Shown: one piece after another, positions 3,040-52,111 of the stretch
Layout: every line of letters starts with the position of its first letter
Position numbering within the stretch: the first letter of the stretch is position 1
Virus record (IMG/VR): IMGVR_UViG_3300028024_000012
Coordinates: 1-56,980 of that record
Direction: 5' to 3' (one strand)
Origin: a virus
Lineage: Duplodnaviria > Caudoviricetes
Length of the DNA stretch: 56,980 nucleotides
Notes under the pieces: model-generated
Databases searched by the model: none
What the model was told of the DNA's origin: nothing
Seen by the model: the letters and a program-made list of their open reading frames with translations, nothing else
Made by a program: the position numbers and the translations under genes

Positions 3040-3071
3040 GGCACCCTCCCCGGACGGTCAGGATAGCCAGC

Positions 3072-7110: not shown

Positions 7111-7116
7111 GCCACC

Positions 7117-7389
7117 CTATACGTCAGTTCGATCCGCAACAGCTGCGTCAATGACCGCCGCCGCATCGACCTGACCGAGATCAAGTGCACCGCTCTCGCT
7201 GATTTTCGTCGCGGCCCTCTGCGCAGCGATACCAAGCCGCACGAAGAACTCAGCGGCGACTTGCTCTGTAAACGTGACACCCGTCGATTTGCCATTTACC
7301 GTGGGCCGGTCAACCGCAATGCCCGCCCCATCGTTTCGATATTTTATCCGCATCGCAGATCCCATCATCAGTTGGTGGTTACGTCCCAT
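7117..7389 (-). CDS. Hypothetical protein
   Basis: Continuous with operon; start may be 7368/7365. Confidence 0.5.
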   Translation of the reverse strand: MGRNHQLMMGSAMRIKYRNDGAGIAVDRPTVNGKSTGVTFTEQVAAEFFVRLGIAAQRAATKISESGALDLGQVDAAAVIDAAVADRTDV

Positions 7390-20377: not shown

Positions 20378-20379
20378 GA

Positions 20380-20595
20380 TCAGGCCTCCGTGGGCATGGC
20401 GGGATCGGCCGTTGCGACGGGATCAGACGGCGCGGCGGGCGGTGTGGCCTCGACGACCCCGCCCTCAGCGAGGCGGCGGCGCCAATAATCGGTGAGTTCG
20501 ACCTCTCGGCCTTCCGCCGGCAGATAGGCCGCCGGGCCTTGGGACAGGCGTGCGGGATCGACCACCTGCATGCCGGGTGCCGGTTTGATGTACAT
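20380..20595 (-). CDS. DUF2635 protein (Mu gp38-like)
   Basis: KPAPG..V.DP...LPAEG...YWRRRLAEG. Confidence 0.85.
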   Translation of the reverse strand: MYIKPAPGMQVVDPARLSQGPAAYLPAEGREVELTDYWRRRLAEGGVVEATPPAAPSDPVATADPAMPTEA

Positions 20596-24541: not shown

Positions 24542-25408
24542 TCAGGCCGCGTCGCTTGATACGGCCTGCACCAGCTGAGCGAAGGCCTCGGACGGTGCCA
24601 ACATGGCATCCGCCAACCCCAATGTGATTGCCTGGGCAACGCCGGCGGGGCCGCTGTAGACGCGCGCCTCGGTTGCCAGCAGGTCTTTTGCGGTGATCTT
24701 GGTGCCGGCAGCCTGGCGGCCACGGGCGACCGTGTCGCAAAACAACTTGCGAATATCCTCGCACTCGGCTTGCCATGTGTCGCGGACGTCATCCGGCAAC
24801 GGTGTCACTGGATTTCCGTCGACCTTGTGCGCGCCCGCGTGGATATAGGTCAGCGTGATGCCGAAATCCTCGTACATCTTCGAGAAATCGGCATGCAACA
24901 TCACGACACCGACCGAGCCGATATAGCCGGTGCGCGGAACCGAAATGCTGTCCGCGACCGAGGCAATCGCATAAGCGGCGCTGCAGGCGCTTTCACTGAG
25001 GATGGCGACCACCGGTTTCTTGGCAGCCGACTTCGCTGAAGCAATCCAGTCGACCAGGTCGAAGCAACCGGAGACGGCGCCGCCGCCGCTATCGATGTCG
25101 AGCACGATCGCTTTGACGTCGGGGTCCGCAAAGGCCTGCGCGAACTGACACTGCAATGCGTCATAGCCGGTCGCAAAGCTCCAGCCCACATAGCAGAACT
25201 TGGGCAGCAATACGCCGGAAACCGCGATGATGGCGATGCCAGCATGAACGGGATACAGGCGCCGTGTGCCATCGCCGTCCGATATGGACATGGCCGCCTT
25301 AGGTACTTGTCGGCCGCCGCCACCGAGTGCCATGGCACTGGCGTAATCTGCAAGCGCCACGCGCGCCGGGGCGATCAGTGCCAATTCCATCTTCGGAGAT
25401 ATCGTCAT
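24542..25408 (-). CDS. S49 (SppA-type) prohead protease
   Basis: LDIDSGGG, ACSAAYAIAS, GSVGV, GAHKVDGNP. Confidence 0.92.
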   Translation of the reverse strand: MTISPKMELALIAPARVALADYASAMALGGGGRQVPKAAMSISDGDGTRRLYPVHAGIAIIAVSGVLLPKFCYVGWSFATGYDALQCQFAQAFADPDVKAIVLDIDSGGGAVSGCFDLVDWIASAKSAAKKPVVAILSESACSAAYAIASVADSISVPRTGYIGSVGVVMLHADFSKMYEDFGITLTYIHAGAHKVDGNPVTPLPDDVRDTWQAECEDIRKLFCDTVARGRQAAGTKITAKDLLATEARVYSGPAGVAQAITLGLADAMLAPSEAFAQLVQAVSSDAA

Positions 25409-27018
25409 TGGCCCACGTCCTCACCGCGGCGCTCGGCATCGTTATTGCCGCCCATCGCCGCATGGAGCTGTTGATAGTCGCGCTGAGCCGGGTGCAACAC
25501 ACCCATGCCATTCATCTCTTGAATCTCGCGGCGCAGCTGGGCAAGAACCTCTTGATAGTCCTTGCCCTGCTCGGCGCATTCAGATTCAAGGTCCGACATG
25601 GCACCATTGATCCCGATCAGTGCACCTTGCTTCTCTTTCACCGGATCGACCCAACCACGACCAGGCCCGATCCATCTGCATTGCGTGTAAGCCGGACGGG
25701 CATCGAGGAAGCTGGGCGCACCGTCCGGAATGGTCAACGCGCCGGCATCGATCGCCTCCTCGAGGAAAGCCATATAGATCGGCGTGCAGAAATTCCGGGC
25801 GAAGGAGTCGCGACGGGTGAGCAGTGTTTTCCAGGTTTCCAAAAGGGAGGCCCGAGCCGAGGAATAGTTGGACTGGGACCAATCCTTGCTCAGTTGCTCG
25901 TAGCTCATGCCGGTGCCGGCAGCGATGTTGCGCAATGTGGCCCGCTCAAAATCCGCGAATGCGGTGTTGGGCCGCGCTGCCGTTTGAAAACCGATCTTCT
26001 CGCCAGGGAACAGAGAGGGAATGCGGACACCACCAAGACGCACATCGCGCCTTTCGTGGAACTCCGCCCGCGCATCCTGATAACCACCCAGCTTGTCGCC
26101 GTTACCGCCTTCGATAATCTCCTGCAGCAGGTTGTGATCGAAAGGGCTTTCGATGAAGGCAGCCAGGATGGCATTCAACACCGCAGCCTGGAGCTCGACC
26201 TTGTCGTATTTGCTGAGCATCTTCAGCTTTTCAAGAACCGGCGTCAGGCGCCCGACGCCGCGGGACAGGCCGTCGCGGTCCTTGTCGTAGTGATGAATCA
26301 GAACGGGACGCCCCCAGGGCGTTTCGCGAGGGATCCGCTCCCAGGTGAAGGCGTCGGTGATGACGGCGCCAACATCGGCCGGATGACGCTTGCGGATATG
26401 ATAGGCGGTCGCCGCCGTGTTCTCGTCGAGCTCTACACCTCCGCGCAGGCGGTCCGTGTCCATCATGTTGTCGGGGTTCGACATCCGATCCGGATCGATG
26501 ACCCGTACTGCAGTTGCCCAACGACTGCCGCGATTCGGAAGCCACATCACCGCACCGAGGGCATCGCCATCGATGATGTAGTGCCGATAGGCAAGGCCAA
26601 ACACGCCGCCCATCGTAGAATTTCGGGTGGCATCGCTATACTTGCCGGGATCATTGGCAAATTCGCGCCACAACGCCTCAGCCAGCGTACCCCATTCATG
26701 GGCCCATTCGGGCTTCTGGCCCAGCCTGCGCCAGTCAGGTTTCGACGACAGTCGCAACCCACTGCCGATAACGTTGTCAATCTCTCGGCTGACAATACCG
26801 GCAGCCCAACCGTCATTCTTGACCAGGTCGCGAATCCGCGCCGTGATCTGATCACGCTCATAGAGCAGGTCTGCATCAGCCGAGGCCAGGCGCGGATGCC
26901 AGCCACCGAGGTCCTGGCTAATGGGATCGGCGGCCTGATAGGCGGTCTGATGATGCCAATGCGATTTCTTCGCCGGCACCATCGGCGTGCCATCGGCGTT
27001 GAGCAGGCGATTGGACAT
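25405..27018 (-). CDS. Portal protein, lambda family
   Basis: RIRDLVKND, YEQLSKDWSQSNYSSARAS, GWVDPVKE. Confidence 0.95.
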   Translation of the reverse strand: MSNRLLNADGTPMVPAKKSHWHHQTAYQAADPISQDLGGWHPRLASADADLLYERDQITARIRDLVKNDGWAAGIVSREIDNVIGSGLRLSSKPDWRRLGQKPEWAHEWGTLAEALWREFANDPGKYSDATRNSTMGGVFGLAYRHYIIDGDALGAVMWLPNRGSRWATAVRVIDPDRMSNPDNMMDTDRLRGGVELDENTAATAYHIRKRHPADVGAVITDAFTWERIPRETPWGRPVLIHHYDKDRDGLSRGVGRLTPVLEKLKMLSKYDKVELQAAVLNAILAAFIESPFDHNLLQEIIEGGNGDKLGGYQDARAEFHERRDVRLGGVRIPSLFPGEKIGFQTAARPNTAFADFERATLRNIAAGTGMSYEQLSKDWSQSNYSSARASLLETWKTLLTRRDSFARNFCTPIYMAFLEEAIDAGALTIPDGAPSFLDARPAYTQCRWIGPGRGWVDPVKEKQGALIGINGAMSDLESECAEQGKDYQEVLAQLRREIQEMNGMGVLHPAQRDYQQLHAAMGGNNDAERRGEDVGQ

Positions 27019-27035
27019 GGTGATCTCCGAGCGCC

Positions 27036-27263
27036 TTACCGATGACCGAAAGAGACGCCGATCGCGCGGCGACGAGAGAGACCGAGCTGACCTTGAATTT
27101 CCATGATCCGCATCTGGATCTTCGTCTCGTCGCCCGGCTTGTAGTCGACCTTGCGATTGTCATACTGGACCGAGACGATCGCTTTGCCGATCAGCAACTG
27201 ATGCCGCGCAGCCTGCAGCTCGGCCAGCTGCCGTTCCAGCGAGGCACGTTCGGTTGCATCCAT
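27036..27263 (-). CDS. gpW head-tail joining protein
   Basis: ARHQLLIGK..VSV...RKVDY. Confidence 0.85.
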   Translation of the reverse strand: MDATERASLERQLAELQAARHQLLIGKAIVSVQYDNRKVDYKPGDETKIQMRIMEIQGQLGLSRRRAIGVSFGHR

Positions 27264-30764: not shown

Positions 30765-31030
30765 TTGGATACTTGGAGGGTTTGGATAGTTTGGAGAGTC
30801 ATTTCTATATATAAACGCACATGCAAAGCGCATACGTGGTGCGGGGAAACCCTCCAACCTTCCAAACCCTCCATGGCTTCAATCAAATCAAACGCTTAGT
30901 GCCGGACAGTTGCCGGATGGTTGGAGGGTTTAAGGCCCATTTTCAGCGCTCATCGGGCAATCCTCCGCCGTCCGGCGCGCCGTCAGCGCCCGAACCACCC
31001 TTCGAACTCTCCAACCCTCCAAACTCTTCC
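30765..31030. repeat. Iteron cluster / putative replication origin
   Basis: TTGGA at 30765, 30773, 30782, 30791; inverted TCCA at 30853, 30861, 30870; AT-rich spacer; IHF consensus 30886..30898. Confidence 0.7.
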
Positions 31031-32535
31031 TGGGTGATCGCGATGCCGGTGTAGTACATCACGCCCATCTTTTCCTTGTGGTAGCCGAGGTCGGAGAGGC
31101 GCCGACCGAAGGACGTGCCGCTGACCGGGCTAATGCCGTTCGCGCCCGCCCATTTGGTGTATATCTGGTAGAGCCGCGTCGCCTGGACGCTGCCGCCGGT
31201 CTCGCGCACTGTCGCCGTGCGCATGAATTCGCCGACCGGGTCGCTCTCGGTCCGGTATTCCTCGGTCGCGCGTTTCACGCTCTCCGGCAGCACCAGGCCG
31301 CGCTCCCGCCAGAGGCGATAGCCGTCCAAAAGCCAGTTCAGGATGCCGGATGCCTCAGCCTTCAATTTTTCCGCCAAGCGCTTGTCGCGCTCCTCAGGGG
31401 GAATGTACTGGTCGAACGGCACCAGCAGGATGCGGCGCCAGATGCCTTCATCCTGGCCCCGGATGTTGGGCTTGATGTTGACCGAGAGCACCAGCTTGAA
31501 ACTCGGCATGAACTCGAAAAAGCTTTCATGCAGGTTTCGCGCCGTCATCTTCTCCCCGCCCGTGATCTGCTTCACCACCGATTCCGAGAGGCGCTGCCCG
31601 ACCTCCGGTTCGCTCGCGGTGACGAGCCTGCCGCCAGGCAGCCGTGCGAGATCCGGCGTGGCGTCGCCGCCGCGCCGTCGCTCATCGAACATGAAAGTCT
31701 GGATGGGCAGCGTCAGGCCGTAATCGCCCATGATGTACTGGATCGTATCCATCATGGTGGATTTGCCGTTGGCGCCCTTGCCGTGCGCGATCAGCATCTG
31801 CTGTTCGCCGGTATCGCCGGTCAGCACATAGCCGAACCAGGTCTGCAGGAAGAGCTGCGTGGGGTGGTCCGGGATGATGCGGGCGATGAAGGCATTCCAC
31901 AGGGGGCATGTGGCTTCGGCGTCATACACGACTTCGGCACAGCGCGTCTTCAGGTCGCTATGGAGATGCGGCCGCAACGTGATATCGCCATCGATCAGCG
32001 AACGCGTGCCGTTGTCATTGGCGGCGACCTTGGTCGGCAATTCCAGCGTGCCGTTCAGCACGTTCAGCAGGAACGGCCTGTCGTCCAATTCGCGCGGCGG
32101 GCGCCTCAGATAAGGCATGGCGCTGCGCAGCATCGCGTCGACCTTGGCCGAATTGCCGCTTGCGGCCTGCCACTTGAAATGGTTCTCGACCCTCTTTTGC
32201 CATTCCGCCGCATCGAAACCCGGCGGCGGATCTTTCATCAAGCGGTCGAATTCCACTTCCAGGGCCTTGACCTCGCCCGAGATCGCCTCTGCCGTGCGAT
32301 GCGCACATTTCATGGCCTCGGCATCGCCGGCTTCGCCCTGCCAGCGCCGGCCGTCCCAGACATACCAGCGAGCGCCATCGACCCACATCAGGTTGTTGCC
32401 ATAGCGCGCGATCAAACGGCGCGCATTGCCGAGATCGTTGCGCGGCTCCCGCGCAAGATGCAGATCATCGGCCGGCTGCTCCGCCTCATCGACAGCCGCA
32501 AAGATCGACTTCATGGCCTCTTGTTCATTACTCAT
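30943..32535 (-). CDS. P4-family/D5-like SF3 helicase (phage/plasmid primase, P4 family)
   Basis: D5_N region (WYVWDGRRW, LNVLNG), GKGANGKST Walker A, KQITGG, IWRR. Confidence 0.92.
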   Translation of the reverse strand: MSNEQEAMKSIFAAVDEAEQPADDLHLAREPRNDLGNARRLIARYGNNLMWVDGARWYVWDGRRWQGEAGDAEAMKCAHRTAEAISGEVKALEVEFDRLMKDPPPGFDAAEWQKRVENHFKWQAASGNSAKVDAMLRSAMPYLRRPPRELDDRPFLLNVLNGTLELPTKVAANDNGTRSLIDGDITLRPHLHSDLKTRCAEVVYDAEATCPLWNAFIARIIPDHPTQLFLQTWFGYVLTGDTGEQQMLIAHGKGANGKSTMMDTIQYIMGDYGLTLPIQTFMFDERRRGGDATPDLARLPGGRLVTASEPEVGQRLSESVVKQITGGEKMTARNLHESFFEFMPSFKLVLSVNIKPNIRGQDEGIWRRILLVPFDQYIPPEERDKRLAEKLKAEASGILNWLLDGYRLWRERGLVLPESVKRATEEYRTESDPVGEFMRTATVRETGGSVQATRLYQIYTKWAGANGISPVSGTSFGRRLSDLGYHKEKMGVMYYTGIAITQEEFGGLESSKGGSGADGAPDGGGLPDER

Positions 32536-33653
32536 CCTTCGGCCGCACCCTTCAGCATGTCATTGAAGTCCTTCCCCGGCGCCGCCCATGCAACGCGTAC
32601 CGTCAAACCCATATGTTGAAATCGACGCCGGGCGCAGTCGACCAGCGCCCGCGTGATGAACGGATCGCTATCGCCATCCCCCAGGATGATCAGCTCCCGC
32701 GCTTGCGCCGGCGGCACGAAGCCCGGCCGCGACAGATCCGGCCAAGGTGGCGGGATCATGACGCCAGGTCTGGTCGGGTGCTCCCGCTCCGCCTTGCAGC
32801 GGCACCGATGCGTATCACCGGTACCGGCGATATTGCCGAGGCTGAGTGCGGCCCAAACCGGCGTCATGTCGCCATTGAGGCGCAGGGCCTGCATCACCGA
32901 CAGGCAGGTCTCAATGCCCTCGCCGATGACCAGCCTTTCCCCGGCGGCGGCGAAGCGTGCGCAGCCGCCCCAGCATTGTCCCAGCATCTTCTTGGCCTGC
33001 TTGCCGATCGGCGCCTTGGCCTCGCCCGTGCGATCGAGAAAGGTGCGGTGGATGCCGCGTACCTTGCCGTCGACATCCTGTACGCCGGCCACCATGGCGG
33101 GGAATGATGGGCTGCCAGGCTCGGAATCGCTCGGCAGGTTGGGATGAAAGCGCAGGCTGGGCGGCATGCCGCCGATCATCGCGACATCGATGCCGCGCTT
33201 GGCAAGATAGCTCTCGACCAATGTGCCGGCCGCCGGCTTGGACTCCCGCCAGATGCCGATCGCCCACTCTTGGATGAAAGCTTTGCGCGCCGCATCGCGG
33301 GCCTCGGAAAAGCTGGCCTTGATCGGCGCTGCGAAGACCTGCCGCGGTTCCACCTTGCTCGCTTCCTCACTGGGCAGCAGCCCCGCGCGCGCGGCCAATT
33401 CTCGGATGGCGGTCTTGTCGTCGACCCCATGGATATCGCGATAGAAGCGGATCACGTCGCCAGCGGCGCCGCAGCCATAGCATCGATAGAGGTTCTTGCC
33501 GGCATGGACATAGAAGCTCGGCGACTTCTCCCGGTGAAAGGGACAGAGGCCGACCAGTTCCCGCCCCGCCCGTTTCAGCGCGACCTTTTCCGCCACGACC
33601 TCATACAGGGTTATGGCGCGTTTCAGGTCGGTGATGGAGATCCGGCCGGTCAT
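32532..33653 (-). CDS. DNA primase: CHC2 zinc finger + Toprim
   Basis: CPFH.EKSPSF...CYGC, IHRTFL, GEGIET, GDGD, DFND. Confidence 0.9.
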   Translation of the reverse strand: MTGRISITDLKRAITLYEVVAEKVALKRAGRELVGLCPFHREKSPSFYVHAGKNLYRCYGCGAAGDVIRFYRDIHGVDDKTAIRELAARAGLLPSEEASKVEPRQVFAAPIKASFSEARDAARKAFIQEWAIGIWRESKPAAGTLVESYLAKRGIDVAMIGGMPPSLRFHPNLPSDSEPGSPSFPAMVAGVQDVDGKVRGIHRTFLDRTGEAKAPIGKQAKKMLGQCWGGCARFAAAGERLVIGEGIETCLSVMQALRLNGDMTPVWAALSLGNIAGTGDTHRCRCKAEREHPTRPGVMIPPPWPDLSRPGFVPPAQARELIILGDGDSDPFITRALVDCARRRFQHMGLTVRVAWAAPGKDFNDMLKGAAEG

Positions 33654-33670
33654 ACCACCACCCGGGGCAC

Positions 33671-33725
33671 TAGGGCATTTTTGTCCCTTCCGCCCTTGAC
33701 GTAGGACAATTTTGTCCTATATCTT
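33671..33725 (+). promoter_or_regulatory. hicAB promoter with palindromic operator(s)
   Basis: TTGACG 33696, TATCTT 33720; TAGGACAA-TT-TTGTCCTA 33702..33719 plus degenerate copy 33671..33688. Confidence 0.8.
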
Positions 33726-33748
33726 CTTTCGTAACGACGGGGGAAGCG

Positions 33749-33967
33749 ATGAAGGGGAAGGAACTGCTGAAGCTGCTGAAGCGCTATGCCGGCCAGAAGG
33801 ACATCCCGTTCAACTATGACGGCGGCCACGGCAAGGGCGGACATGGCCGGGTCTATGTGGGGGACAAATTCACCACCATCCCCAGCCTGCACCAGGAACT
33901 GAAAACCGGCCTGACGCTCGCGATCATCAAGCAGCTCGGCATCGACAAACGGGACCTCGGCCTCTAA
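33749..33967 (+). CDS. hicA: HicA family toxin
   Basis: GKGGH catalytic His motif, ELKTGL..AIIKQLGI. Confidence 0.9.
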   Translation: MKGKELLKLLKRYAGQKDIPFNYDGGHGKGGHGRVYVGDKFTTIPSLHQELKTGLTLAIIKQLGIDKRDLGL

Positions 33968-34000
33968 GGCCGGGGTCGCCGAACCGACGGTAAGAAAGGA

Positions 34001-34498
34001 ATGCAAGTCATGGAAACCATCTCTCTCGCCTATCCGGCCAAGCTGACCCCCGATGACGGCGGCTTTATCGTCACCTTCCGCGATGTGCCGGAGGCGCTGA
34101 CCCAGGGCGATGACGAGGCGGAGGCCCTGGCCCAAGCGGCGGATGCGTTGAGCGTGGCCCTGGCGGGTTATGTCAAGGCCGGCCGCGATCTGCCGGCGCC
34201 GACCGAAGCGAAGCGCGGCGAGACGATCGTGCATGCCGACCCGACGCTGGCGGCCAAGGTGGCGCTGCGGCGCATGATGTTCGACATGGCGATCAACACA
34301 TCCCAACTCGCCCGACGCCTCGATGTCGATGTGAAGGAAGCCCGCCGCCTGCTCGACCCCGACCATCCCAGCAAGCTGAACGGCCTCGACCAGGCCTTGC
34401 GCGCGTTGGGGCATCGCGCGGTGCTGCATGTCATGCCGCTGCAGCGCGATCTGCCGGTGCGCAACGCTAAGCCGGCGCCGAAGAAGAAGGTAGGCTAG
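34001..34498 (+). CDS. hicB: HicB family antitoxin with C-terminal HTH
   Basis: YPA.L...GGFIVTFRDVPEALTQGDD..EAL..A.DAL; ARRLLDP.H.SK; start may be 34010. Confidence 0.92.
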   Translation: MQVMETISLAYPAKLTPDDGGFIVTFRDVPEALTQGDDEAEALAQAADALSVALAGYVKAGRDLPAPTEAKRGETIVHADPTLAAKVALRRMMFDMAINTSQLARRLDVDVKEARRLLDPDHPSKLNGLDQALRALGHRAVLHVMPLQRDLPVRNAKPAPKKKVG

Positions 34499-34501
34499 AG
34501 C

Positions 34502-35239
34502 ATGATCGACCTGCAGATCGGCGGACCTCACTTTGGCGCATGGCAATGGGCTTACGACTTTCAAACACTGATCACGGGCCTTTTTGCCCTCGTAGCCGGA
34601 ATTTCGGCCTTCGTCTCGTCGCTCATCATGGCGAAAGCCGCGGAGACAGCGGCCAATAAACAAGCCGCTGCGGTACTTACTCAGGTGGAAGTAGATCGCA
34701 TCGCGCGGGATGCAGATATCGAACGAACAGACGTAGAGAAGCGTAACAGGGATACGGCACGCGTGGCCGCTGCGTCGTTGCTGTTGGAGATACCAACGCG
34801 AGCAAGCGCAGGGGCAGTTTGGTATGTTATCGAATCCTACGAGTTGCTGATTGACGCCTCCGCTACTGGAGAGGTGGCAGACAGCAAAGCACTCGTAACC
34901 TCGCAGGTGCGCGACATGGATCAGAGTATTGTCGCTTTGGACGAGGCGCTTGCCTGGGCACGAGCAATTCTGGTTGACCTCCCACCTCAGCATCAACGTG
35001 GTCTCGCAACGCAGATGTGGCACATTCATAGGATATGTGGAGATGTCAAACTCAATCGAAACGCTATCTGTGACAGCCTCGCCAATCATGCGCTTATTGA
35101 CGCAGCCAACATCTCGCTGATGAAAGCTCGCCATCAGCGATTGGTAACCTGTGCCGATATTCTGCTCGCCGCTTCCGTTGATGGGTCTTTTGACAACGCG
35201 GCGGCCCGTTTCCATTTCGGGGTACAATTGCTCCAATAG
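34502..35239 (+). CDS. Hypothetical protein with N-terminal TM helix, co-transcribed with hicAB
   Basis: 3 bp after hicB; YDFQTLITGLFAL TM segment; lower GC. Confidence 0.75.
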   Translation: MIDLQIGGPHFGAWQWAYDFQTLITGLFALVAGISAFVSSLIMAKAAETAANKQAAAVLTQVEVDRIARDADIERTDVEKRNRDTARVAAASLLLEIPTRASAGAVWYVIESYELLIDASATGEVADSKALVTSQVRDMDQSIVALDEALAWARAILVDLPPQHQRGLATQMWHIHRICGDVKLNRNAICDSLANHALIDAANISLMKARHQRLVTCADILLAASVDGSFDNAAARFHFGVQLLQ

Positions 35240-35253
35240 CGACGGCCTAGCCA

Positions 35254-36621
35254 TTACGCTACCTCGAGAGAGTTGAAGCCCGACAGCAACGAGCCCTGAC
35301 GCAATGCTGGCTCGATCCGGTTGCGTGCGATATTGACGGAATCCGGATTGAGTTCGATCAACACAGCGCTGCGGTTAAGTTCCGCAGCGACTAGGCCCGT
35401 GGTTCCAGCGCCACCGAACGGATCGAGCACGATTGCAGGCACAGGCGATTGCCTCGAGCAGGAACAGCTAGGTTCCCACGCCACCGTCTGATGCGAGACC
35501 GAGCCGCGTTGCGAGCCTTTCCAACGGCAGGTCTCATCATGCTGATCTTCACGCCGGACGGCGGACTCAATCGAGACACCCGGCTGCGGGGTGAACGACT
35601 TCGTGGTGACGCGTCGCCACTGTGCGCCGCAATTCGGGCAGCACCCCTTTTCCGACGTGCCCGCCATGATGCAGGGCCGTACTAATCCTGGAGGGAAGGT
35701 CGCGAAATGGGCTTCCTTGAATGGCTTCGTTGCGATGGTCCAGACATTGCGCAGATTGGCACCGCCGGCCATCTGTTCTTCGACCGGCATCTGATCCCAG
35801 AGGTCATTAAACCCCGCATGACGCCGACCATGGCCGCGCTGCTTCTCCGTCTTGGCGCCTTTCTCCCGCCCGTTCGGATGGAATGAACCGTGCGCGCCAG
35901 GCTCGGTGTTCCAGCCATCGGGCATCTTATAGGCGCCTCGTCCCTTGGCGTCTGTGCGCACCGCTACCGCGTCATAGAAATAGCGCTCGCTCTTCGTGAA
36001 GAGGAACATCTTTTCATGCGACGTTGCGGGCCGATCACTGATGGATTCCGGCATCGGGTTTGGCTTATGCCAGATTACCTCCGATCTGACCCACCAACCG
36101 AAGTCCTGCATCGCGATCGCGAAGCGGTTCGGCACCATGCAGAGGTCTTTCGGCTTCAGCGTGCCGCCGGCGACGACACGTCCTCCATGGGCGCCTGCGA
36201 GATTGCCGCCATTACCACTGGTGCCGACGCGCGAGGTCTTTTCATAGTCGGGCACGTAGATCGGCCCCACCGTCGAAAACGGCTTATCTCGGAACGTGCG
36301 GTCATCGGTCTTCAGGCGCTTGACCTCATCGGCCCGGCGGCCATTGGGCGAGGTCGCATAGCAATCGCCGTAGTTCACCCAACAGGTGCCATCCGGCCGC
36401 AGAACACGCCAGACCTCGGCAAAGACCTCATTGACCATGACGTCGAGATGTTCGCCCAGGGTCGGCTCACAGCCGATTTCCTTGGCCTTGTCCGGGTGAC
36501 CGTCAGGCAGGTAAGAGCGCAGGCCCCAATAGGGCGGTGAGGTCACCGCGCAATGTACCGAATTGTCCGGCAACTCGCGGAGCTTCTCGCGGACCTCGCC
36601 GAGGAGGATGCGGATCGTCAT
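35254..36621 (-). CDS. DNA methyltransferase, N4-C/N6-A beta class
   Basis: VTSPPY, WHKPNPMPES, HFATFP, LDPFGGAGTTG. Confidence 0.93.
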   Translation of the reverse strand: MTIRILLGEVREKLRELPDNSVHCAVTSPPYWGLRSYLPDGHPDKAKEIGCEPTLGEHLDVMVNEVFAEVWRVLRPDGTCWVNYGDCYATSPNGRRADEVKRLKTDDRTFRDKPFSTVGPIYVPDYEKTSRVGTSGNGGNLAGAHGGRVVAGGTLKPKDLCMVPNRFAIAMQDFGWWVRSEVIWHKPNPMPESISDRPATSHEKMFLFTKSERYFYDAVAVRTDAKGRGAYKMPDGWNTEPGAHGSFHPNGREKGAKTEKQRGHGRRHAGFNDLWDQMPVEEQMAGGANLRNVWTIATKPFKEAHFATFPPGLVRPCIMAGTSEKGCCPNCGAQWRRVTTKSFTPQPGVSIESAVRREDQHDETCRWKGSQRGSVSHQTVAWEPSCSCSRQSPVPAIVLDPFGGAGTTGLVAAELNRSAVLIELNPDSVNIARNRIEPALRQGSLLSGFNSLEVA

Positions 36622-36794
36622 CGCGCACCCGCGCCAGGCGCCAGCAACGCCTTCACTTCGGCCTCGGTCAGACACATGGCAGTTGCGACTTCGGCGATAG
36701 ACGATCCGCGTCGCTTCAGCGACCGTGCCATCTTCATCCTGATCGGCATCAGGATGTCGTCTGGTTTCGGCATGTCGCCTAGCTTGCCGCGCAT
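36618..36794 (-). CDS. Small HTH-like hypothetical protein
   Basis: RRGSSIAEVATAM.LT..EV; overlaps neighbours (TGATG/ATGA). Confidence 0.55.
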   Translation of the reverse strand: MRGKLGDMPKPDDILMPIRMKMARSLKRRGSSIAEVATAMCLTEAEVKALLAPGAGAR

Positions 36795-36985
36795 CACAGC
36801 AGACTCCCCTGTCGCGCCGTCTTCGCTGCATCCGAGGAGGCCAGCCGCTCCTCCCGTGCCTTCTGCACCTCGGCACGGTGCTCCGAGCAGGCCCAGATCA
36901 CCGGCCCCGGCGGCAGGCCGAAGCCGTAACAGGCGAGCCCGGTGCATGCTTCGCGGACGCATTGATGGACCTCAGGATCGCTCAT
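36794..36985 (-). CDS. Small Cys/His protein
   Basis: HQC...C...ACYGFG...WAC.EH; coupled overlaps. Confidence 0.6.
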   Translation of the reverse strand: MSDPEVHQCVREACTGLACYGFGLPPGPVIWACSEHRAEVQKAREERLASSDAAKTARQGSLL

Positions 36986-37227
36986 GCCGCTTGATCCGTC
37001 CGTCTTGACCTCGCGGGCGCGTGATCCTGGACCTTGACGCCAAGGCGATGCAGCTTCAGCCGCACAGCGCTATGCGTGCGCACCAGCTTGTCGGCAATCC
37101 ACTTCGTCTGATAACCCGCCCTGCGCAGCCGGATCAGTTCGGCTATTTCCACCTCGGTCCAATCGACACCGCAGCCGCGCGCATGGGTCGGTGCCGTCAC
37201 GGTTTCACGGGAAACTGTTTCACTCAT
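36982..37227 (-). CDS. GcrA N-terminal-like HTH protein
   Basis: WTEVEIAELIRLRRAG....IA..L.RT.SAV..KLHRLG. Confidence 0.65.
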   Translation of the reverse strand: MSETVSRETVTAPTHARGCGVDWTEVEIAELIRLRRAGYQTKWIADKLVRTHSAVRLKLHRLGVKVQDHAPARSRRTDQAA

Positions 37228-37493
37228 CCCCGGCTCCCTGCCCTGGGTTTCTCGACCAGGCCGCGCCGGTCGTCATTGGTGATGCTGCGCGCCACGGCCT
37301 GAGACAGGTCGCTCAACAGCTCCAGCGCGCGGCGATTGGTGATCGGCACCACGACGGACTTCCCCTCCGCCATCGAGACGATCTCGATCGGTGCGCCCGG
37401 TTCCTCATGACGGATACAGGCGCCGCGTGGCATCTGCATCGATGCCGGCGCCGCGTTGCGGTGCCGAGGCGGGCCATCCGATTTGCGCTGCAT
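37224..37493 (-). CDS. Hypothetical protein (89 aa)
   Basis: GGGGA RBS, ATGA overlap downstream. Confidence 0.55.
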   Translation of the reverse strand: MQRKSDGPPRHRNAAPASMQMPRGACIRHEEPGAPIEIVSMAEGKSVVVPITNRRALELLSDLSQAVARSITNDDRRGLVEKPRAGSRG

Positions 37494-37961: not shown

Positions 37962-38450
37962 TCACTTCGTCTCCTCGCGCATCATGGTGCGACACACGGC
38001 GATGACATGGCCGAGCGCGCCGATGACCGGCATCGCTTTTCCGTGGATGCGCGCCGCTTCGCGCGGCTGGATGCCGCCGTCTTCCATCGCCTTGGCGAAT
38101 TGCTCGAACAGCTTGGCGGCGGCGGCGCCCACCTTGGCCATATGGATCGGCAGCGACTTGCCGTTGGTGGCGTGCATCGGCACCAGGGCAAAGCCCGATT
38201 CCGCCGCCAGGAACTCGGTGACGATCGGCTGGCCGCAGGCCATTTCCAGCGTGCGGATCTGCGACGGGCGCATTTCCGTGTCGGACATCGGGTCGGTGTA
38301 ACGCTGCGCCTGGGACTGGCTGAGGCCGAGCAGGTCAGCGACGCGGGTCGTGCCGCCGCAGGCATAGACCAGCCGCGCGATTGCCTCTTTCAGCGTCCCT
38401 TCCGGACGCGGCTTGTTCAGTTTCTGACGCGGTCTGCCGGGGAGTGTCAT
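37962..38450 (-). CDS. CII-like phage regulatory protein
   Basis: LKEA..RLV.ACGG...A.LLG, LE..CG.PIVT..LA; follows cro. Confidence 0.7.
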   Translation of the reverse strand: MTLPGRPRQKLNKPRPEGTLKEAIARLVYACGGTTRVADLLGLSQSQAQRYTDPMSDTEMRPSQIRTLEMACGQPIVTEFLAAESGFALVPMHATNGKSLPIHMAKVGAAAAKLFEQFAKAMEDGGIQPREAARIHGKAMPVIGALGHVIAVCRTMMREETK

Positions 38451-38514
38451 GCCGTCACCTCTTTTGTGACGGCACTGACAAGCGATGCAATGCGGGAGCG
38501 ACAACGGGTAACCA

Positions 38515-38859
38515 CTAGTCAGTTACCCCTCGAAAAGCGCGGATCTCTGGCGCAAGTAAGGTGTTGTTAACTTTCACGGATGCCGCGCTGTGAGCATCGT
38601 TGTCATTCACCGCGACGAGGTCGGCAGCATCGAAGAAGTCGGCCGGCTCAAGCGGAACACCAACAGCGCGAGCGTTGCGCATGATGATGCCCTGATACTG
38701 CGTCGGCACGCGGCCACCCGTGCCGCGGCGATCCACAGGGTAGGTCCAGCGGTAAACCGTCGCCGGGCGCAGGTTGCACCACGAGCAGATAGCCAGGAGA
38801 CCCGCTCGAAAGCCCCCATCGGCGCCACACTTGGAGATGACATGTTCGGCAACGTTCAT
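38515..38859 (-). CDS. cro: Cro-like repressor
   Basis: TVYRWTYP...GTGG.VP...L.PADFF; divergent from cI. Confidence 0.75.
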   Translation of the reverse strand: MNVAEHVISKCGADGGFRAGLLAICSWCNLRPATVYRWTYPVDRRGTGGRVPTQYQGIIMRNARAVGVPLEPADFFDAADLVAVNDNDAHSAASVKVNNTLLAPEIRAFRGVTD

Positions 38860-38870
38860 AACGCCAACTA

Positions 38871-38963
38871 TTACGACAATCGTAACATCGTCGCAAGGCA
38901 GAATATTACGAAAGTCGTAGATGTGCGGCCGCGATCTTCAGACCATAATTACGAGATGCGTAA
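38871..38963. promoter_or_regulatory. Three 15-bp operators TTACGA-N3-TCGTAA (OR-like)
   Basis: 38871..38885, 38906..38920, 38949..38963. Confidence 0.85.
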
Positions 38964-39666
38964 TAAGTGGCTGAAAGATCGACTAAAAGAACTCAGGAAA
39001 ACTCAATCCGCGCTGGCGACGCAGATGGGTTTGCCCACGCCGCGCATTTCCGAGATCATTGCCGGCGATCGGCGCATCGCGTCACACGAGGTGCCGGTTA
39101 TCGCCGCCTTCCTGGAATGGCCGGAATCGCTGGTGCTGCAGAACATCACGGAAGTGGCCGGGGGTGCCTTCACGCCAAATGCGGAAGCTACCGACATGCA
39201 GATGCTGGCCGTCACGGTCGTCGGCGAAGTCGCAGCGGGTGTTTTCCGCGAATCGCTTGAATTGCCGCCGGAGGACCAGTTCCAGATTTATGCGTTGCTC
39301 GACCCCAGGTTTCGAGGCATGCCCCATTTCGGTTTGCGGGTGAGAGGCCCGTCCATGAATCAGCTGTATCCCGAGGGCAGTTTCGTCGTCTGCGTGCCGC
39401 TGATCCACCTTGGTGAGGGTTTCATGCCGAAAAGCGGCAACCGGGTGGTTGTCGAGCGGCGCAACAAGCTCGGCGAAGTGGAAGCCACCATCAAGGAGAT
39501 GGTCTACGACAAGGACGGCCAGCCCTGGCTATGGCCGCGATCGGATCACCCCGAGTTCCAGACGCCCTGGCCGCTGCCCACCGGCAATAACGGGCACGGC
39601 CTGGATGATCACGAAGATATCCGGATCTCCGCTTTGGTCGTCTTCAGCGTCCGCCCGGAGGTCTGA
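38956..39666 (+). CDS. cI: CI repressor (XRE HTH + S24 autopeptidase)
   Basis: TQSALATQMG...RISEII.G; VAAG cleavage site; GPSMN Ser; TIKE Lys. Confidence 0.9.
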   Translation: MRNKWLKDRLKELRKTQSALATQMGLPTPRISEIIAGDRRIASHEVPVIAAFLEWPESLVLQNITEVAGGAFTPNAEATDMQMLAVTVVGEVAAGVFRESLELPPEDQFQIYALLDPRFRGMPHFGLRVRGPSMNQLYPEGSFVVCVPLIHLGEGFMPKSGNRVVVERRNKLGEVEATIKEMVYDKDGQPWLWPRSDHPEFQTPWPLPTGNNGHGLDDHEDIRISALVVFSVRPEV

Positions 39667-45354: not shown

Positions 45355-46447
45355 ATCCAACATCGAATGGACGGACGCGACCTGGAATCCGATCCGGGGG
45401 TGCTCGCGTGTCTCAGAAGGGTGCCGAGGCTGCTATGCAGAGCGCGTCGCGGCCCGCTTCGCGGATGACGAGCAGGCATATGCCGGGCTAGCGCATTATG
45501 TGAAGCGACAGGATGGCACGCGCGAGGCGCGATGGACTGGTGAACTGACCTTTGGCCACAACCTCGATCAGCCGCTGACATGGCGACGACCCAGGCACAT
45601 CTTCGTCAACTCGATGTCTGACCTGTTCCATGAGAAACTATCGATAGACGAGATCGCCACGGTGTTTGCGATCTGTGTCGCGGCTCACCATCTCAACGGC
45701 CACATTCTTCAGATCCTCACCAAGCGGTCGGTGCGGCTGTTCGGAATCCTGCATAAGCCGGAATTCTGGGAGCAGGTGAATATCGAAGCCGGACTGCACG
45801 TCATGGAAGGCACAGATCCACTTGCCCGCCGCAGCGACGATGCACGCGCTACGCTAGAGGAGTATGGCCCGGACAATCCGCCGCCCGGGATTTGGCTCGG
45901 CGTTTCCGTCGAGAACCAAGAGGCTGCGGATGACCGAATTCCGGACCTGCTTGGCACGCCGGCGGCGAAGCGTTTCATCAGCGCCGAGCCATTGCTGGGG
46001 ACGATCGATTTGGATTCGTCACTCGGTGGTACGCAGTGGATTGGTGGGCAGCGCGGCTGCGAGGGCACACACTGCGGGGCCGGCACGCCGGATTGTCCGA
46101 AGGAGCCGCACCACCACCACGATGAACGCTGCAATCGAGGACTGGATTGGGTGATCGTCGGAGGCGAGAGCGGCCCCAAGGCCCGACCGATGCATCCCGA
46201 CTGGGCACGGACTTTGCGCGACCAGTGCCAGGCGGCCGGTGTGCCGTTCTTTTTCAAGCAGTGGGGCGAGTGGGCACGACTCACCAGCGACATCATCGGT
46301 CCGAATGGTTCGGTGAAAACGTCGCCGCGTGGCAGCGTTAACTGGCGAGCATACCAGCCGGACTCGATTGGTGGAATGTTCCGCGTTGGCAAGAAAGCTG
46401 CCGGCCGGCTGCTGGATGGCCGTACATGGGATGAGGTGCCGGCATGA
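45344..46447 (+). CDS. Phage Gp37/Gp68 (DUF5131) radical-SAM-like protein
   Basis: IEWTDATWNP..GC..VS.GC..CYA, FVNSMSDLFH, VGGESG, PFFFKQWG. Confidence 0.92.
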   Translation: MSDKSNIEWTDATWNPIRGCSRVSEGCRGCYAERVAARFADDEQAYAGLAHYVKRQDGTREARWTGELTFGHNLDQPLTWRRPRHIFVNSMSDLFHEKLSIDEIATVFAICVAAHHLNGHILQILTKRSVRLFGILHKPEFWEQVNIEAGLHVMEGTDPLARRSDDARATLEEYGPDNPPPGIWLGVSVENQEAADDRIPDLLGTPAAKRFISAEPLLGTIDLDSSLGGTQWIGGQRGCEGTHCGAGTPDCPKEPHHHHDERCNRGLDWVIVGGESGPKARPMHPDWARTLRDQCQAAGVPFFFKQWGEWARLTSDIIGPNGSVKTSPRGSVNWRAYQPDSIGGMFRVGKKAAGRLLDGRTWDEVPA

Positions 46448-46485
46448 CCGCAGTCACACCGGCACCTCATTTGGCAGAGACTGGG

Positions 46486-46719
46486 TTACCCCGCCAAATC
46501 GATGCTATCGCGCAGCGGAGCGATGACCTTGCGCTCCAGATCAGCGGCCATTTCGGCGGGCAGACTGGGTTCGATCGCTTCGATCTCCCAGTTGCATCCG
46601 TGACGCGGTTCGGAGAGTCGCCGGACCCTTACATTGTGAATGAGTCCAGGGGCTTGATCGCCAATTTTAATGAGCAGGTACCGCTCAAGCGGCTCGCGGA
46701 ACATGGAGGCCTTTGCCAT
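46486..46719 (-). CDS. Small antisense moron protein (77 aa)
   Basis: GGAGG RBS; CNWEI...IAPLR...DL; TTGACA upstream at 46786..46781. Confidence 0.6.
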   Translation of the reverse strand: MAKASMFREPLERYLLIKIGDQAPGLIHNVRVRRLSEPRHGCNWEIEAIEPSLPAEMAADLERKVIAPLRDSIDLAG

Positions 46720-46845
46720 TCGACTACCCTCCAGCCCAAAGGACTGATGAACAGTCATCATCCCTGTAGTTGCGAACAAGTGTCAATCCGCTCCTTTGTA
46801 AAAGTTTATTCATCTTTCCGCGGGGCGGTACCGGCAGCGATCACC

Positions 46846-47178
46846 TCACAGCCCGGCCAGATCAGCCTCGTTAAAGAACACGATGCCCCCAGACTTGGCG
46901 CGGGCCGTATCTCGGATCGCGGCATTAATGCGGTCTTCAACAGCAGACCGGCGCGTATCGATGGCCGCGATGCACTGCGAAACCGTCGCAAAGGGCAAAT
47001 CGAGGGTGATCTGAACCGCGATTTTCGTCATGCCGACGGCTGCGAGGCCATTGTCGCCACCTTCGATTTTGAAAATGAACAGCCCATTCGAATCATTCCA
47101 GCAGCCATTGGAAATGATCTTCAGACGGTTAGCGATGCGCTTTGCTGCACTGGCGGGGACTTCCTGGCGTTCCATCAT
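46846..47178 (-). CDS. Small antisense moron protein (110 aa)
   Basis: GGAGG RBS before MMERQ; protein-like composition, lower GC. Confidence 0.55.
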   Translation of the reverse strand: MMERQEVPASAAKRIANRLKIISNGCWNDSNGLFIFKIEGGDNGLAAVGMTKIAVQITLDLPFATVSQCIAAIDTRRSAVEDRINAAIRDTARAKSGGIVFFNEADLAGL

Positions 47179-47435
47179 GCCTCCCAAAAAGGGACGCGAG
47201 ATACCGGTCAAGCCTTGGGGGTTCCTGAACCGGCACCTCGCGCGGCTGGTCATCGACGAATGACGTCTCCCAGCGACGTCGTTCTGCCGGCCGCCAACGG
47301 GGGTTGCGGATACCGTGCGAAACGCCGCCTTAGCCTTAGGATAAGTCGCTTCGCGGGTAACATCCTCATCCAAATAGAGGAGAGCAAGGCGCCACACAGA
47401 AACGTGACATCGCCGTCGTCGAAGGTGGTGGCGGC

Positions 47436-49286
47436 ATGATCCGCCCTGACGAGCTAATCATCGACAACTTCGCCGGCGGCGGCGGTGCCAGCACGGGGAT
47501 CGAGATGGCGCTTGGCCGGCCGGTGGACGTAGCCATCAATCACGACCCCGAAGCCGTGGCGATGCACCAGGCGAACCACCCGCACACGCTGCACTATTGC
47601 CAATCGGTCTGGAAGGCTGATCCCCGCGACGTCGTGATGGCGGCATCCCGCCGGCGTGGCAGCGATGCGCCGCTGCCGGTGGGACTGGCCTGGTTCTCCC
47701 CGGACTGCAAGCACTTCAGCAAGGCCAAGGGCGGCAGGCCGGTGGAAAACCACATCCGGGATCTGGCCTGGGTCGTGGTGCATTGGGCAAAGCTTGTGAA
47801 GCCGCGCGTCATCATGCTGGAGAACGTCGAGGAGTTCCGGACCTGGGCACCTCTGCGGGTGCGCAAATGGCCCAATGGAACAGATATGTTCGACCTGCAT
47901 GGAAACGCGGTGCTGGAGCCGGACCCTGCTCGGGCCGGCCAGACGTTCTGGCGCTGGATCCGGCAGCTGCGCAGCCATGGGTATACGGACATTCAATGGC
48001 GCGAAGTGCGCGCGATGACCAGCGACGCCCCGACGATCCGCAAACGACTAATTATTAAAGCTGTCCGGGCTGGCGAGAAGGTCCGCTGGGCGAAGCCGAC
48101 ACATGGTCCCGCAAAGGGACTGAAGCCCTACCGGACGGCGGCCGAATGCATCGATTGGTCGCTGCCCTGTCCATCGATCTTCCTCACCAAGGAAGAAGCG
48201 CGAAAGGTCGGTGCAAAACGCCCGCTGGTCGAGAATACCGAACGCCGCATCGCCGCCGGCACCCGCAGATTCGTTCTCCAGGCCGCGAAGCCATTCATCA
48301 TCCCGATCACCCATGCCGGCGACAGCCGCACGCACGATATCGACGAGCCGATGCGGACGCAGACTACGGCCAATCGGGGCGAGCATGCCTTGATTGTGCC
48401 GACCTTCGTCGGTTGCGGGGGGCGCGCAGGCCAATCAAGGCCTCGTAGCGGCGATGAACCATTCGCCACCGCCACTGCGAAGCCGGATACCTGCGTCGTT
48501 GCGGCCCACATTACCAAGTTCCGCAGCAATGCCATCGGCAGCGACATGACTGAGCCGATGCCGACCGTCACCGCCAACAGCTTTATCAAGCGGCCCGGCG
48601 GCAGTGCACCTGTGGGCCTGGTGACCGCCTATTTGGCCCAGCACAATACGGGCGTCATCGGCCGCGCCGCGAACGAGCCGCTTTCGACCGTTACGAAGGC
48701 TGGCGCGCAGCAGCAGATCGTCACAAGCCACTTGGTCAAGCTGCGCAATAACCAAGATGGTCAAAGTGTCGAGACACCGATGCCGACTCTGACGAGCGGC
48801 GGCGGTCATGTGGGCGAGATACGTTGCTTCCTCGTCAAATATTACGGCTCCGGCGGACAGGACCAGGCGGTCACAGAGCCGATGCACACCCTCACGGCCA
48901 AGCCCAGAATGGGCCTGGTACAGGCCGAGCTGGTCGAGGTGCAGACCGACCTGCCGGATGATCTCCGCTATGCGGCATGGTGGGTTGCGCGTTTCCTGGA
49001 AAAGTACGATCCGGAACCTAAACCTCTGATCGTGGGGCCGAGGGCCTCTGCTGTTGGCACTGGCGGGTACGTGCTGACCGATATCGGCATGCGGATGCTG
49101 ACCCCACGCGAACGGTTCCGAGCGCAGGGTTTCCCGGACAGCTACATCATCGACCCGATCTACAACGGTAAACCGCTCAGCGAAACCGCCCAGGGCCGCA
49201 TGTGTGGGAACTCGGTCTGCCCCGACATGGCGGCGGCAGAGGTGGCGGCACAGTTCGGACCGATCGAGTTGGCGGAGGTCGCATGA
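47436..49286 (+). CDS. DNA (cytosine-5) methyltransferase with repeated variable region
   Basis: FAGGGG, SPDC, ENV, RKR, AQGFP, GNSV. Confidence 0.93.
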   Translation: MIRPDELIIDNFAGGGGASTGIEMALGRPVDVAINHDPEAVAMHQANHPHTLHYCQSVWKADPRDVVMAASRRRGSDAPLPVGLAWFSPDCKHFSKAKGGRPVENHIRDLAWVVVHWAKLVKPRVIMLENVEEFRTWAPLRVRKWPNGTDMFDLHGNAVLEPDPARAGQTFWRWIRQLRSHGYTDIQWREVRAMTSDAPTIRKRLIIKAVRAGEKVRWAKPTHGPAKGLKPYRTAAECIDWSLPCPSIFLTKEEARKVGAKRPLVENTERRIAAGTRRFVLQAAKPFIIPITHAGDSRTHDIDEPMRTQTTANRGEHALIVPTFVGCGGRAGQSRPRSGDEPFATATAKPDTCVVAAHITKFRSNAIGSDMTEPMPTVTANSFIKRPGGSAPVGLVTAYLAQHNTGVIGRAANEPLSTVTKAGAQQQIVTSHLVKLRNNQDGQSVETPMPTLTSGGGHVGEIRCFLVKYYGSGGQDQAVTEPMHTLTAKPRMGLVQAELVEVQTDLPDDLRYAAWWVARFLEKYDPEPKPLIVGPRASAVGTGGYVLTDIGMRMLTPRERFRAQGFPDSYIIDPIYNGKPLSETAQGRMCGNSVCPDMAAAEVAAQFGPIELAEVA

Positions 49287-51612: not shown

Positions 51613-51953
51613 CCAAGCCCGTCCGTATCCAGCCGCAGCGCACCAAGGGCTGGCGGATGCCACCCAACACGGTGAAGGTTGATCGCTCAACACGATGGGG
51701 TAACCCCTGCAAGATCGGCCAATTCGAGGGTTACAGCGCGGACGAAGCCGTCCGCGATTTCCGTCTCTGGATTGAGCGAGACCCAACCGTACGCAGCTTC
51801 GAGAATGCCCATGGCAAACCGCCAAGCATCGCAGAGATCCACCAGCAGCTTGCCGGCCAGAATCTGGCCTGCTGGTGCAAACCCGGCGCGCCGTGTCATG
51901 CCGACGTGCTGCTGGAGATGGCGAATCGAGAGGATGTCCCATGCAGAAACTGA
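51609..51953 (+). CDS. DUF4326 family protein
   Basis: KGWRMP.NTVKVDR..RWGNP, L.G.NLACWC, CHADVL. Confidence 0.88.
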   Translation: MTKPVRIQPQRTKGWRMPPNTVKVDRSTRWGNPCKIGQFEGYSADEAVRDFRLWIERDPTVRSFENAHGKPPSIAEIHQQLAGQNLACWCKPGAPCHADVLLEMANREDVPCRN

Positions 51954-52111
51954 AGGCTCAAACCCCACCGCCGGCACAGCCGTCACACCCGACAGTGATC
52001 GCCCTGGCGCAGCTGCTTGCCCGGGTCGCCCTCGCGGCGCACAATGGCGCCGCACCGGAAGAGACACCGACCAATGACAATGATCCGCGCCGCCATCTAC
52101 GCCAGGTATAG
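51941..52111 (+). CDS. Small helical protein upstream of integrase, candidate directionality factor
   Basis: GAGGA RBS; ALAQLLARVA helix; overlaps integrase start. Confidence 0.5.
   Translation: MQKLKAQTPPPAQPSHPTVIALAQLLARVALAAHNGAAPEETPTNDNDPRRHLRQV

Follow-up and report, generated by a model that had tools for sequence, protein, structure and literature searches.

How can genes that point backward sit inside a phage operon when the genes behind them must still be expressed? The question is raised by a caudoviricete sequence of 56,980 nucleotides (nt), IMG/VR record IMGVR_UViG_3300028024_000012 (the window), in which a hicA-hicB toxin-antitoxin pair and an orphan gene, ORF245, lie backward between a DNA methyltransferase gene and a primase gene. 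The whole of this cassette is spanned on the operon strand by a stop-free open reading frame (ORF) of 534 codons, called the bridge here, which runs from the methyltransferase stop codon to the primase start codon. The bridge is a real, selected feature. That selection keeps it open for a reason other than its product was the core claim of an earlier sequence-only reading of this DNA, and the claim is supported by a positive comparative test and by the depletion of TTA, CTA and TCA codons in ORF245. The bridge is probably a translated spacer, maintained by selection against stops, that keeps the early mRNA covered with ribosomes and in this way provides both protection from polarity and coupling to the primase.

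The bridge is antisense to ORF245, hicB and hicA and codon-aligned with all three, and it also spans both spacers and the hicA promoter region (Table 1). The starts of the cargo genes (33749, 34001 and 34502) are all 2 mod 3, the register of the minus-strand codons, with spacers of 33 nt between hicA and hicB and 3 nt between hicB and ORF245. The bridge ATG and the methyltransferase stop TAA (35256..35254) have one base in common, giving TAATG, and this ATG is the first start codon after the upstream stop of the frame. Only five codons of the bridge precede the cargo and 32 lie between hicA and the primase start, where the 96-nt spacer, in which the promoter-like site and the palindrome lie, is crossed without a stop. 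The frame and its coordinates, the TAATG and ATGA junctions, the single register of the cargo genes with their two spacers and the passage of the open frame across the hicAB promoter had all been described in the sequence-only reading, and each was verified. With a start on the upstream stop and a stop in the downstream start, the bridge has the junctions of a translationally coupled operon ORF. Its G+C content by codon position (0.69/0.43/0.67) is shadow-like. The predicted product is basic, with 6.1% Cys and an isoelectric point (pI) of 8.7 in the part opposite ORF245, and a pI of 10.8 and 13% Arg in the part opposite hicAB; no family for the translation was found in Pfam, NCBIfam or PHROGs.

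Table 1. Features at and around the bridge. Coordinates are those of the window unless another locus is named; GC3, G+C content at third codon positions; aa, amino acids.
Feature	Position	Strand	Remarks
Bridge frame	33650..35254	-	534 codons, stop-free on the operon strand
Start junction	35252..35265	-	GAGG at 35265-35262, 7 nt ahead of the bridge ATG at 35254-35252
End junction, ATGA	33650..33653	-	Primase ATG at 33653-33651 overlaps bridge TGA at 33652-33650
hicA-like toxin gene (cargo)	33749..33967	+	PHROG 353 'toxin', E 8e-8; GC3 0.85
hicB antitoxin gene (cargo)	34001..34498	+	PHROG 497, E 1e-29; GC3 0.84
ORF245, orphan cargo gene	34502..35239	+	N-terminal hydrophobic segment; GC 0.55
Cassette promoter-like site	33696..33725	+	Only sigma-70-like site in 33400-35500
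Palindrome	33701-33720		In cassette promoter region; probable HicB operator
N6/N4 DNA methyltransferase	35254..36876	-	Pfam PF01555, E 2e-33; longest ORF
Primase	32532..33653	-	CHC2 zinc finger, DUF7146, Toprim (Pfam)
D5-type primase/helicase	30943..32535	-	D5_N, Pox_D5 (Pfam); start overlaps primase stop by 4 nt
CI-like repressor	38590-39666	+	Just upstream of the region
CII-like activator	37962-38504	-	Just upstream of the region
Ordinary shadow ORFs, 475-629 aa	10948-12837, 25327-27045, 18899-20488, 31078-32619	+	Opposite GC3-rich genes
Ordinary shadow ORF of the same set	51687-53114	-	Opposite a GC3-rich gene
Small gene of locus L160	9131-9478 (L160)	+	Starts on primase stop (ATGA), between primase and backward hicAB

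The length of such a frame means little, as the sequence-only reading had cautioned. Five other antisense shadow ORFs are present in the window (629, 572, 529, 513 and 475 aa), so that the length of the bridge is by itself uninformative; these five lie on the strand opposite their operon, have no co-oriented neighbours to which they could be coupled, and serve as negative examples. They fit an explanation in which the bridge too is a compositional shadow, open because the codon-aligned antisense of GC3-rich genes rarely holds stops, and joined to its neighbours by coincidence. The GC3-rich hicA and hicB also agree with such an origin, since their parts of the frame would stay open by chance with probabilities of 0.60 and 0.23 and are uninformative alone. 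Controls were taken from the same loci as the cassettes, as antisense frames over co-directional gene sets and their spacers in 110 loci. At a G+C content of 0.58-0.66 these were fully open in 22 of 113 cases over 500-800 nt (19%), which again accords with a shadow, in 6/105 over 800-1100 nt and in 5/128 over 1400-1800 nt.

ORF245 argues against a shadow. Its GC3 is 0.57 and A-ending codons are used freely (A at 28 of 88 four-fold sites and in 14 of 28 Q/K/E codons), yet codons that would place a stop in the bridge occur at none of the 36 opportunities: CTA in 0 of 20 CTN, TCA in 0 of 10 TCN and TTA in 0 of 6 TTR codons (P = 1.6e-7). Depletion of TTA, CTA and TCA in the cargo had been proposed as a test, and it is strong in this gene. 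Avoidance of rare codons is ruled out as its cause, because ORF245 is rich in A-ending codons and homologues of the cargo that are not embedded in an operon carry 1-11 such codons. The mirror test, of the minus frame over the same span, gave P 2.8e-4. When the three cargo proteins were held fixed, synonymous codons were drawn from phage usage and the spacers were shuffled, 0.4% of 1000 resamplings left the 1601-nt span without a stop, P(open) = 0.004. The openness of the span, and of ORF245 in particular, is thus not what composition predicts.

The comparative evidence came from loci that carry the same HicAB family. Among viral contigs with primase relatives, a backward hicA-hicB pair was found in the replication module at three loci (L082, L097 and L160), each spanned by an open operon-strand frame. 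The layout of L082 is that of the window, methyltransferase, backward hicAB and primase, with a bridge start in TGATG and a stop 5 nt past the primase ATG. A search with a HicB alignment yielded 35 viral loci, nearly all of them backward cassettes tightly flanked by co-oriented genes, and the operon-strand frame is open across hicA and hicB in 30 of the 32 loci that have both. It is open in 13/13 loci in which hicA and hicB share a register and in 17/19 in which the registers differ. The sequence-only reading had taken two-ended coupling and a shared register as the signal; coupling recurs across lineages, and the shared register, in view of the open out-of-register loci, is not required. The frame also covers a third cassette gene in the window, L269 and L265.

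Another 30 loci, mostly in other contexts, came from 401 bacterial genomes. Viral and bacterial loci together give an open frame in 15 of the 18 embedded lineages (groups under 60% HicB identity, not derived from a tree) and in two of the 17 non-embedded loci (Fisher test, p = 3e-5; p = 2e-4 with 14 non-embedded clusters instead), and the non-embedded homologues have 1-11 stops in the aligned frame. The probability of openness per locus is 0.006-0.05 in most embedded loci with a G+C content of 0.56-0.66. Close relatives of the window itself did not appear: blastn of 30900-37300 against 50,697 phage records returned only short methyltransferase or primase pieces, and none came from a scan of viral contigs in which the primase was the single query protein. 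Scans of metagenomes and genomes with a primase alignment gave mostly partial matches to the N-terminal zinc-finger part (residues about 7-160), read here as DnaG-like; the partial-match loci served as background only, for codon-usage training and for a tblastn scan of 240 loci.

Open coupled frames are also found over other cargo upstream of related primases, with no conservation of the product, as a comparison proposed in the sequence-only reading had anticipated. Canonical HicA and HicB by Pfam (E 1e-22 and 1e-27) lie under such a frame in L084; a Gp49/HigB-like toxin with an HI1420-type antidote in L124, where TGATG is found at both bridge ends; a DUF4145 protein with a G+C content of 0.52 in L100/L105, with ATGA at the bridge start; and a helix-turn-helix (HTH) protein in L135. 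These cases were kept only from antisense islands whose cargo has a family match. A general survey of antisense islands (80 islands, 32 open) was not relied on, as it is confounded: a mis-called shadow makes a real gene look like a bridge. In L101 an open frame over putative backward cargo ends in ATGA. The cargo of L110/L114, under an open coupled frame, has no family match, so that its coding strand is uncertain and these cases are weak.

The slot about 1 kb upstream of the primase in loci L081-L160 (locus coordinates about 7000-8000) is a cargo hotspot, where all of the cargo lies backward: two HicAB families, a HigBA-like pair, DUF4145, an HTH protein and unknowns. In L160 the bridge frame overlaps, in another frame, the 3' half of the small gene that starts on the primase stop, which is presumably DUF4031-like; the start of this gene was rejected as part of the bridge frame, being that of a separate gene in another frame.

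The junction counts cover 21 lineages with an open frame, of which 15 carry the HicAB family and six other cargo. In 12 of the 21 the upstream stop is overlapped by an in-frame ATG, as ATGA or as TAATG/TGATG (expected about 0.10; P = 1e-7, with a baseline contaminated by uncalled small genes, as 215 of 700 'uncoupled' ends have such an ATG before the one-third frame factor), and GTGA occurs at the upstream stop in two further lineages. The bridge TGA lies within the ATGA of the downstream start in 11/21, and most of the others are at most 10 nt away. Since such overlaps are found in 201 of 313 close co-directional gene pairs of the same loci, bridges behave like the usual members of an operon. 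L247 and L248 are among the loci whose bridge starts elsewhere than on the stop of the preceding gene. In L247 a short operon-strand ORF (5544-5919, in coordinates of the oriented locus, as for L248) fills the gap from the upstream stop and ends 10 nt before the bridge start; in L248 a short ORF (3240-3362) that runs from the stop of the upstream gene overlaps the bridge start by 22 nt. These gap-filling ORFs suggest relays of several coupled ORFs.

Of the alternatives to a translated spacer, the one that survives best, although it is unlikely, is true dual coding, in which a functional protein is made from the minus-strand ORF or, at the least, from the 250 codons at its start that face ORF245. 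It would account for the finding that both frames over ORF245 are kept open, as the plus and mirror tests indicate, and for the gene-like coupling of the bridge with GAGG ahead of its ATG. ORF245 is moreover an orphan, with only four, weak, relatives among 1.84 billion representatives and no Pfam, NCBIfam or PHROGs family. The codon-usage score over ORF245 slightly favours the minus strand (plus 3.8, antisense 10.8); composition therefore does not settle the coding strand, and a real protein in the first 250 codons of the bridge is conceivable. The plus strand was chosen by a public gene caller (P0121), and the Atlas model of ORF245 (pLDDT, the predicted confidence of the model, 0.74) is confident and helical, with unnamed clusters as its Atlas look-alikes; ORF245 itself looks like a foldable, membrane-anchored helical protein, which counts against dual coding.

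The product of the bridge is not conserved. Besides its lack of a family and its composition, the bridge protein gave no high-scoring segment pair at E <= 1e-5 by tblastn in the 240 loci, whereas the HicB control reached 3e-41 on L082. Over 105 pairs the median score was 37 bits for bridge translations and 89 bits for HicB, and no similarity to the bridges of relatives was detected other than that imposed by antisense HicAB. With other cargo the bridge has another content and another length, which ranges from 238 to 628 codons, and at 17 loci it passes over hicA out of register. The four-fold sites show no additional constraint: identity at these sites in hicAB is 0.47 at 70-89% amino-acid identity and 0.46-0.51 in flanking genes, a small flank sample with three pairs at 70-89% identity. 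Neither a conserved product nor, within the limits of that sample, constraint at the synonymous sites of the partner, the marks of an antisense overlapping gene, was found.

A second alternative, which is very unlikely, holds that there are two transcription units, with a primase promoter in or beside the cassette, and that the open frame is the relic of a gene split by the cargo. The hicA-primase spacer is indeed a divergent region of 96 nt, and embedded cassettes without a bridge (L246, L279 and L294) imply that downstream genes can be expressed otherwise. A simple consensus scan, however, found no operon-strand promoter-like site in 33400-35500, the hicA-primase spacer included; nor was a convincing operon-strand terminator found there, the sole minus-strand match being weak. 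A relic could not account for 1.5 kb of inserted cargo that is stop-free on the other strand, and the same design recurs with unrelated cargo. The relic itself is ruled out by the small share of the bridge, 5 and 32 codons, that lies outside the cargo. The compositional shadow is strongly disfavoured and the least probable of the three, given ORF245, the whole-span test, the difference between embedded and non-embedded loci, frames without a stop even in AT-richer promoter spacers and over hicA in another register, and coupling that recurs at both ends.

Several observations weigh against the translated spacer. The embedded cassettes L246, L279 and L294 have 3-9 stops in every operon-strand frame, L246 being a viral locus with spacers of 30 and 41 nt, and from these cases it follows that a bridge is not obligatory. 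Open frames in L242, L284 and L285 are uncoupled at their downstream end, and that of L284 lacks a start codon. Chance openness rises with G+C content, to 0.1-0.25 in the higher-GC embedded loci and to 0.2-0.4 in L265, L271, L242 and L084, whose high G+C content makes them individually uninformative. To these are added the slight minus-strand preference over ORF245 and the qualities of the data themselves: neighbouring genes were called by a crude codon-usage caller and downstream start codons were deduced, lineages were delimited by identity, the baseline for start junctions is contaminated, and the flank sample of the four-fold test is small.

The setting of the cassette bears on what the translated spacer might do. 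A CI-like repressor gene and a CII-like activator gene just upstream mark the lysogeny switch, which places the cassette within a temperate phage's early/replication operon, on the minus strand. The CI-like gene is itself an antisense island without a bridge frame, as expected at an operon boundary. The true start of the methyltransferase is probably further inside its longest ORF. The primase has 2812 relatives, the three nearest at 66-69% identity (P0002-P0004).

Of the cargo products, the antitoxin is securely identified as HicB by similarity: a profile of four homologues matches the solved HicB chains 6u0i and 6hpb (E 1e-26) over almost the whole length, and the match to Pfam PF15919 scores 24 bits, under the cut-off of 27. 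The assignment of the toxin as HicA is weaker, with 19.5 bits for Pfam PF07927 HicA_toxin, again under a cut-off of 27, and a toxin-first gene order that fits HicAB. Like the type II HicAB modules that prophages carry as morons, the pair comes with a promoter-like site of its own and a palindrome that resembles an operator. A TTTGTCC-like motif, often a repeat or palindrome, lies between hicA and the downstream operon gene in the window (33660-33748) and in several of the L24x-L27x loci, and also in L082 (7900-7960) and L097 (7810-7870); bridge frames read through it, and it is probably the HicB operator. This HicAB subfamily is typically backward between tightly packed co-oriented phage genes, and the window cassette adds a third, orphan gene.

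Two further places in the window are of related form. At 46444-47439 (plus strand) a 331-codon ORF has 4-nt overlaps with the stop of the previous gene (46447) and with the next start (47436), above codon-aligned minus-strand ORFs at 46486-46779 and 46846-47397; no PHROG family matches any of these three ORFs, and the plus-strand ORF may be an orphan gene or else another bridge, composition not deciding the strand. At 2383-3039 a real minus-strand gene (PHROG 1599, E 3e-37) lies between plus-strand genes and is crossed by an open plus frame, 2383-3066, that ends 5 nt before the next plus gene (3072) and has its first start codon 63 nt past the upstream stop. Because the GC3 of the minus gene is 0.80, chance is possible there.

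The translated spacer would work as follows. The minus-strand early operon would begin at the CI/CII switch near 38.5 kb and take in the methyltransferase, primase and helicase genes as a shared transcript, with the self-promoted hicA-hicB-ORF245 cassette lodged backward in it. Purifying selection removes TTA, CTA and TCA from the cargo and stops from the spacers. Ribosomes that finish the methyltransferase would restart on the overlapping ATG, aided by the GAGG, translate 534 meaningless codons, terminate in the ATGA and restart on the primase. Occupancy by ribosomes, rather than any product, would be what matters, as it would maintain transcription-translation coupling over 1.6 kb of otherwise untranslated RNA, guard against Rho-dependent polarity and hand ribosomes to the coupled primase start. 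Anti-polarity, a pure translational relay and RNA protection cannot be separated here.

Both elements of this mechanism, polarity suppression by translation and stop/start coupling, are textbook material, and overlaps of the ATGA and TGATG type are known from phage operons. The nested genes kil/eta of phage P4, in work by Forti and colleagues from 1999, reportedly belong to the same background. Both junctions of the bridge are of the coupled type, and the coupled unit is not a conventional gene. The likeness to suppression of Rho polarity is that an ORF would be translated so that ribosomes follow RNA polymerase and downstream genes are expressed. According to a review, translation shields intragenic Rut (Rho utilization) sites, uncoupling leads to polarity on downstream genes, and in some leader or upstream ORFs it is the act of translation, and not the peptide made, that controls termination (PMC12360218). 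Known polarity-suppressing ORFs are short, co-directional leader or nested frames, whereas bridges have 240-630 codons. Bridges lie, moreover, on the back of functional antisense genes, so that the cargo's own codon choice is constrained.

A second parallel is ambigrammatic coding in narnaviruses, in which a reverse ORF reportedly lies over the RNA-dependent RNA polymerase (RdRp) gene (DeRisi and colleagues in 2019 and a study entitled 'Polymorphism of genetic ambigrams' are said to describe it). In both systems a long, selected, stop-free frame without homology to known proteins lies opposite real genes. One account presents the narnavirus reverse ORF over the RdRp gene as selected and without homology to known proteins, and proposes that what counts is the act of translation and not the protein made (Retallack et al. 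2021, PMC8316113). In the window a stop-free reverse frame is codon-aligned over whole forward genes, and across relatives openness exceeds chance with no conserved product. The bridge belongs, however, to a DNA phage record with integrated operon architecture, not to an RNA virus genome, and is thus an analogue of ambigrammatic coding rather than a member. Narnaviruses are eukaryotic RNA viruses of about 3 kb with one gene, and the reverse ORF covers the whole segment, whereas the bridge, in a bacterial DNA phage, covers only the backward cargo of an operon, with start-to-stop junctions to the genes on both sides. Transcription-translation coupling, which the bridge is presumed to provide, has no narnavirus counterpart.

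Long ORFs codon-aligned antisense to annotated genes reportedly occur in bacteria as well (laoB is said to be an antisense overlapping gene, and a bioRxiv preprint, 'Long antiparallel ORFs...', to treat long antisense ORFs). Such shadow ORFs are neutral by-products and the overlapping genes are claimed to code for protein, whereas the openness of the bridge is selected and its product is unconserved. No description of stop-free frames over antisense cargo in DNA phages was found in the literature, in a search that left most subscription journals outside.

A design rule, somewhat favoured by these observations, is that early/replication operons of temperate Proteobacteria phages stay translationally continuous, that backward cargo, whether toxin-antitoxin pairs, defence genes or orphans, settles in them only if recoded, and that the slot upstream of the primase is a hotspot with at least four unrelated kinds of cargo. 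Recoding would here have to yield a stop-free operon-strand frame joined stop-to-start to both neighbours. If the rule is true, bridge frames would allow transcription units to be marked out from sequence alone, would point to cargo of recent acquisition and would reveal a hidden codon-usage constraint on horizontally moving defence genes. An open coupled frame would then offer a simple test for co-transcription of flanking genes, and a stop codon silent in the cargo a clean experimental handle on transcription-translation coupling in phages. The bridge would also give bacteria and their DNA phages a counterpart of narnavirus ambigrammatic coding. If ribosomes must cross backward cargo, phage operons would hold long, selected ORFs that code for nothing and that gene callers miss or mis-annotate, the codon choice of morons and defence genes would be constrained by the opposite strand, and polarity would be a barrier that shapes where mobile cargo can insert.

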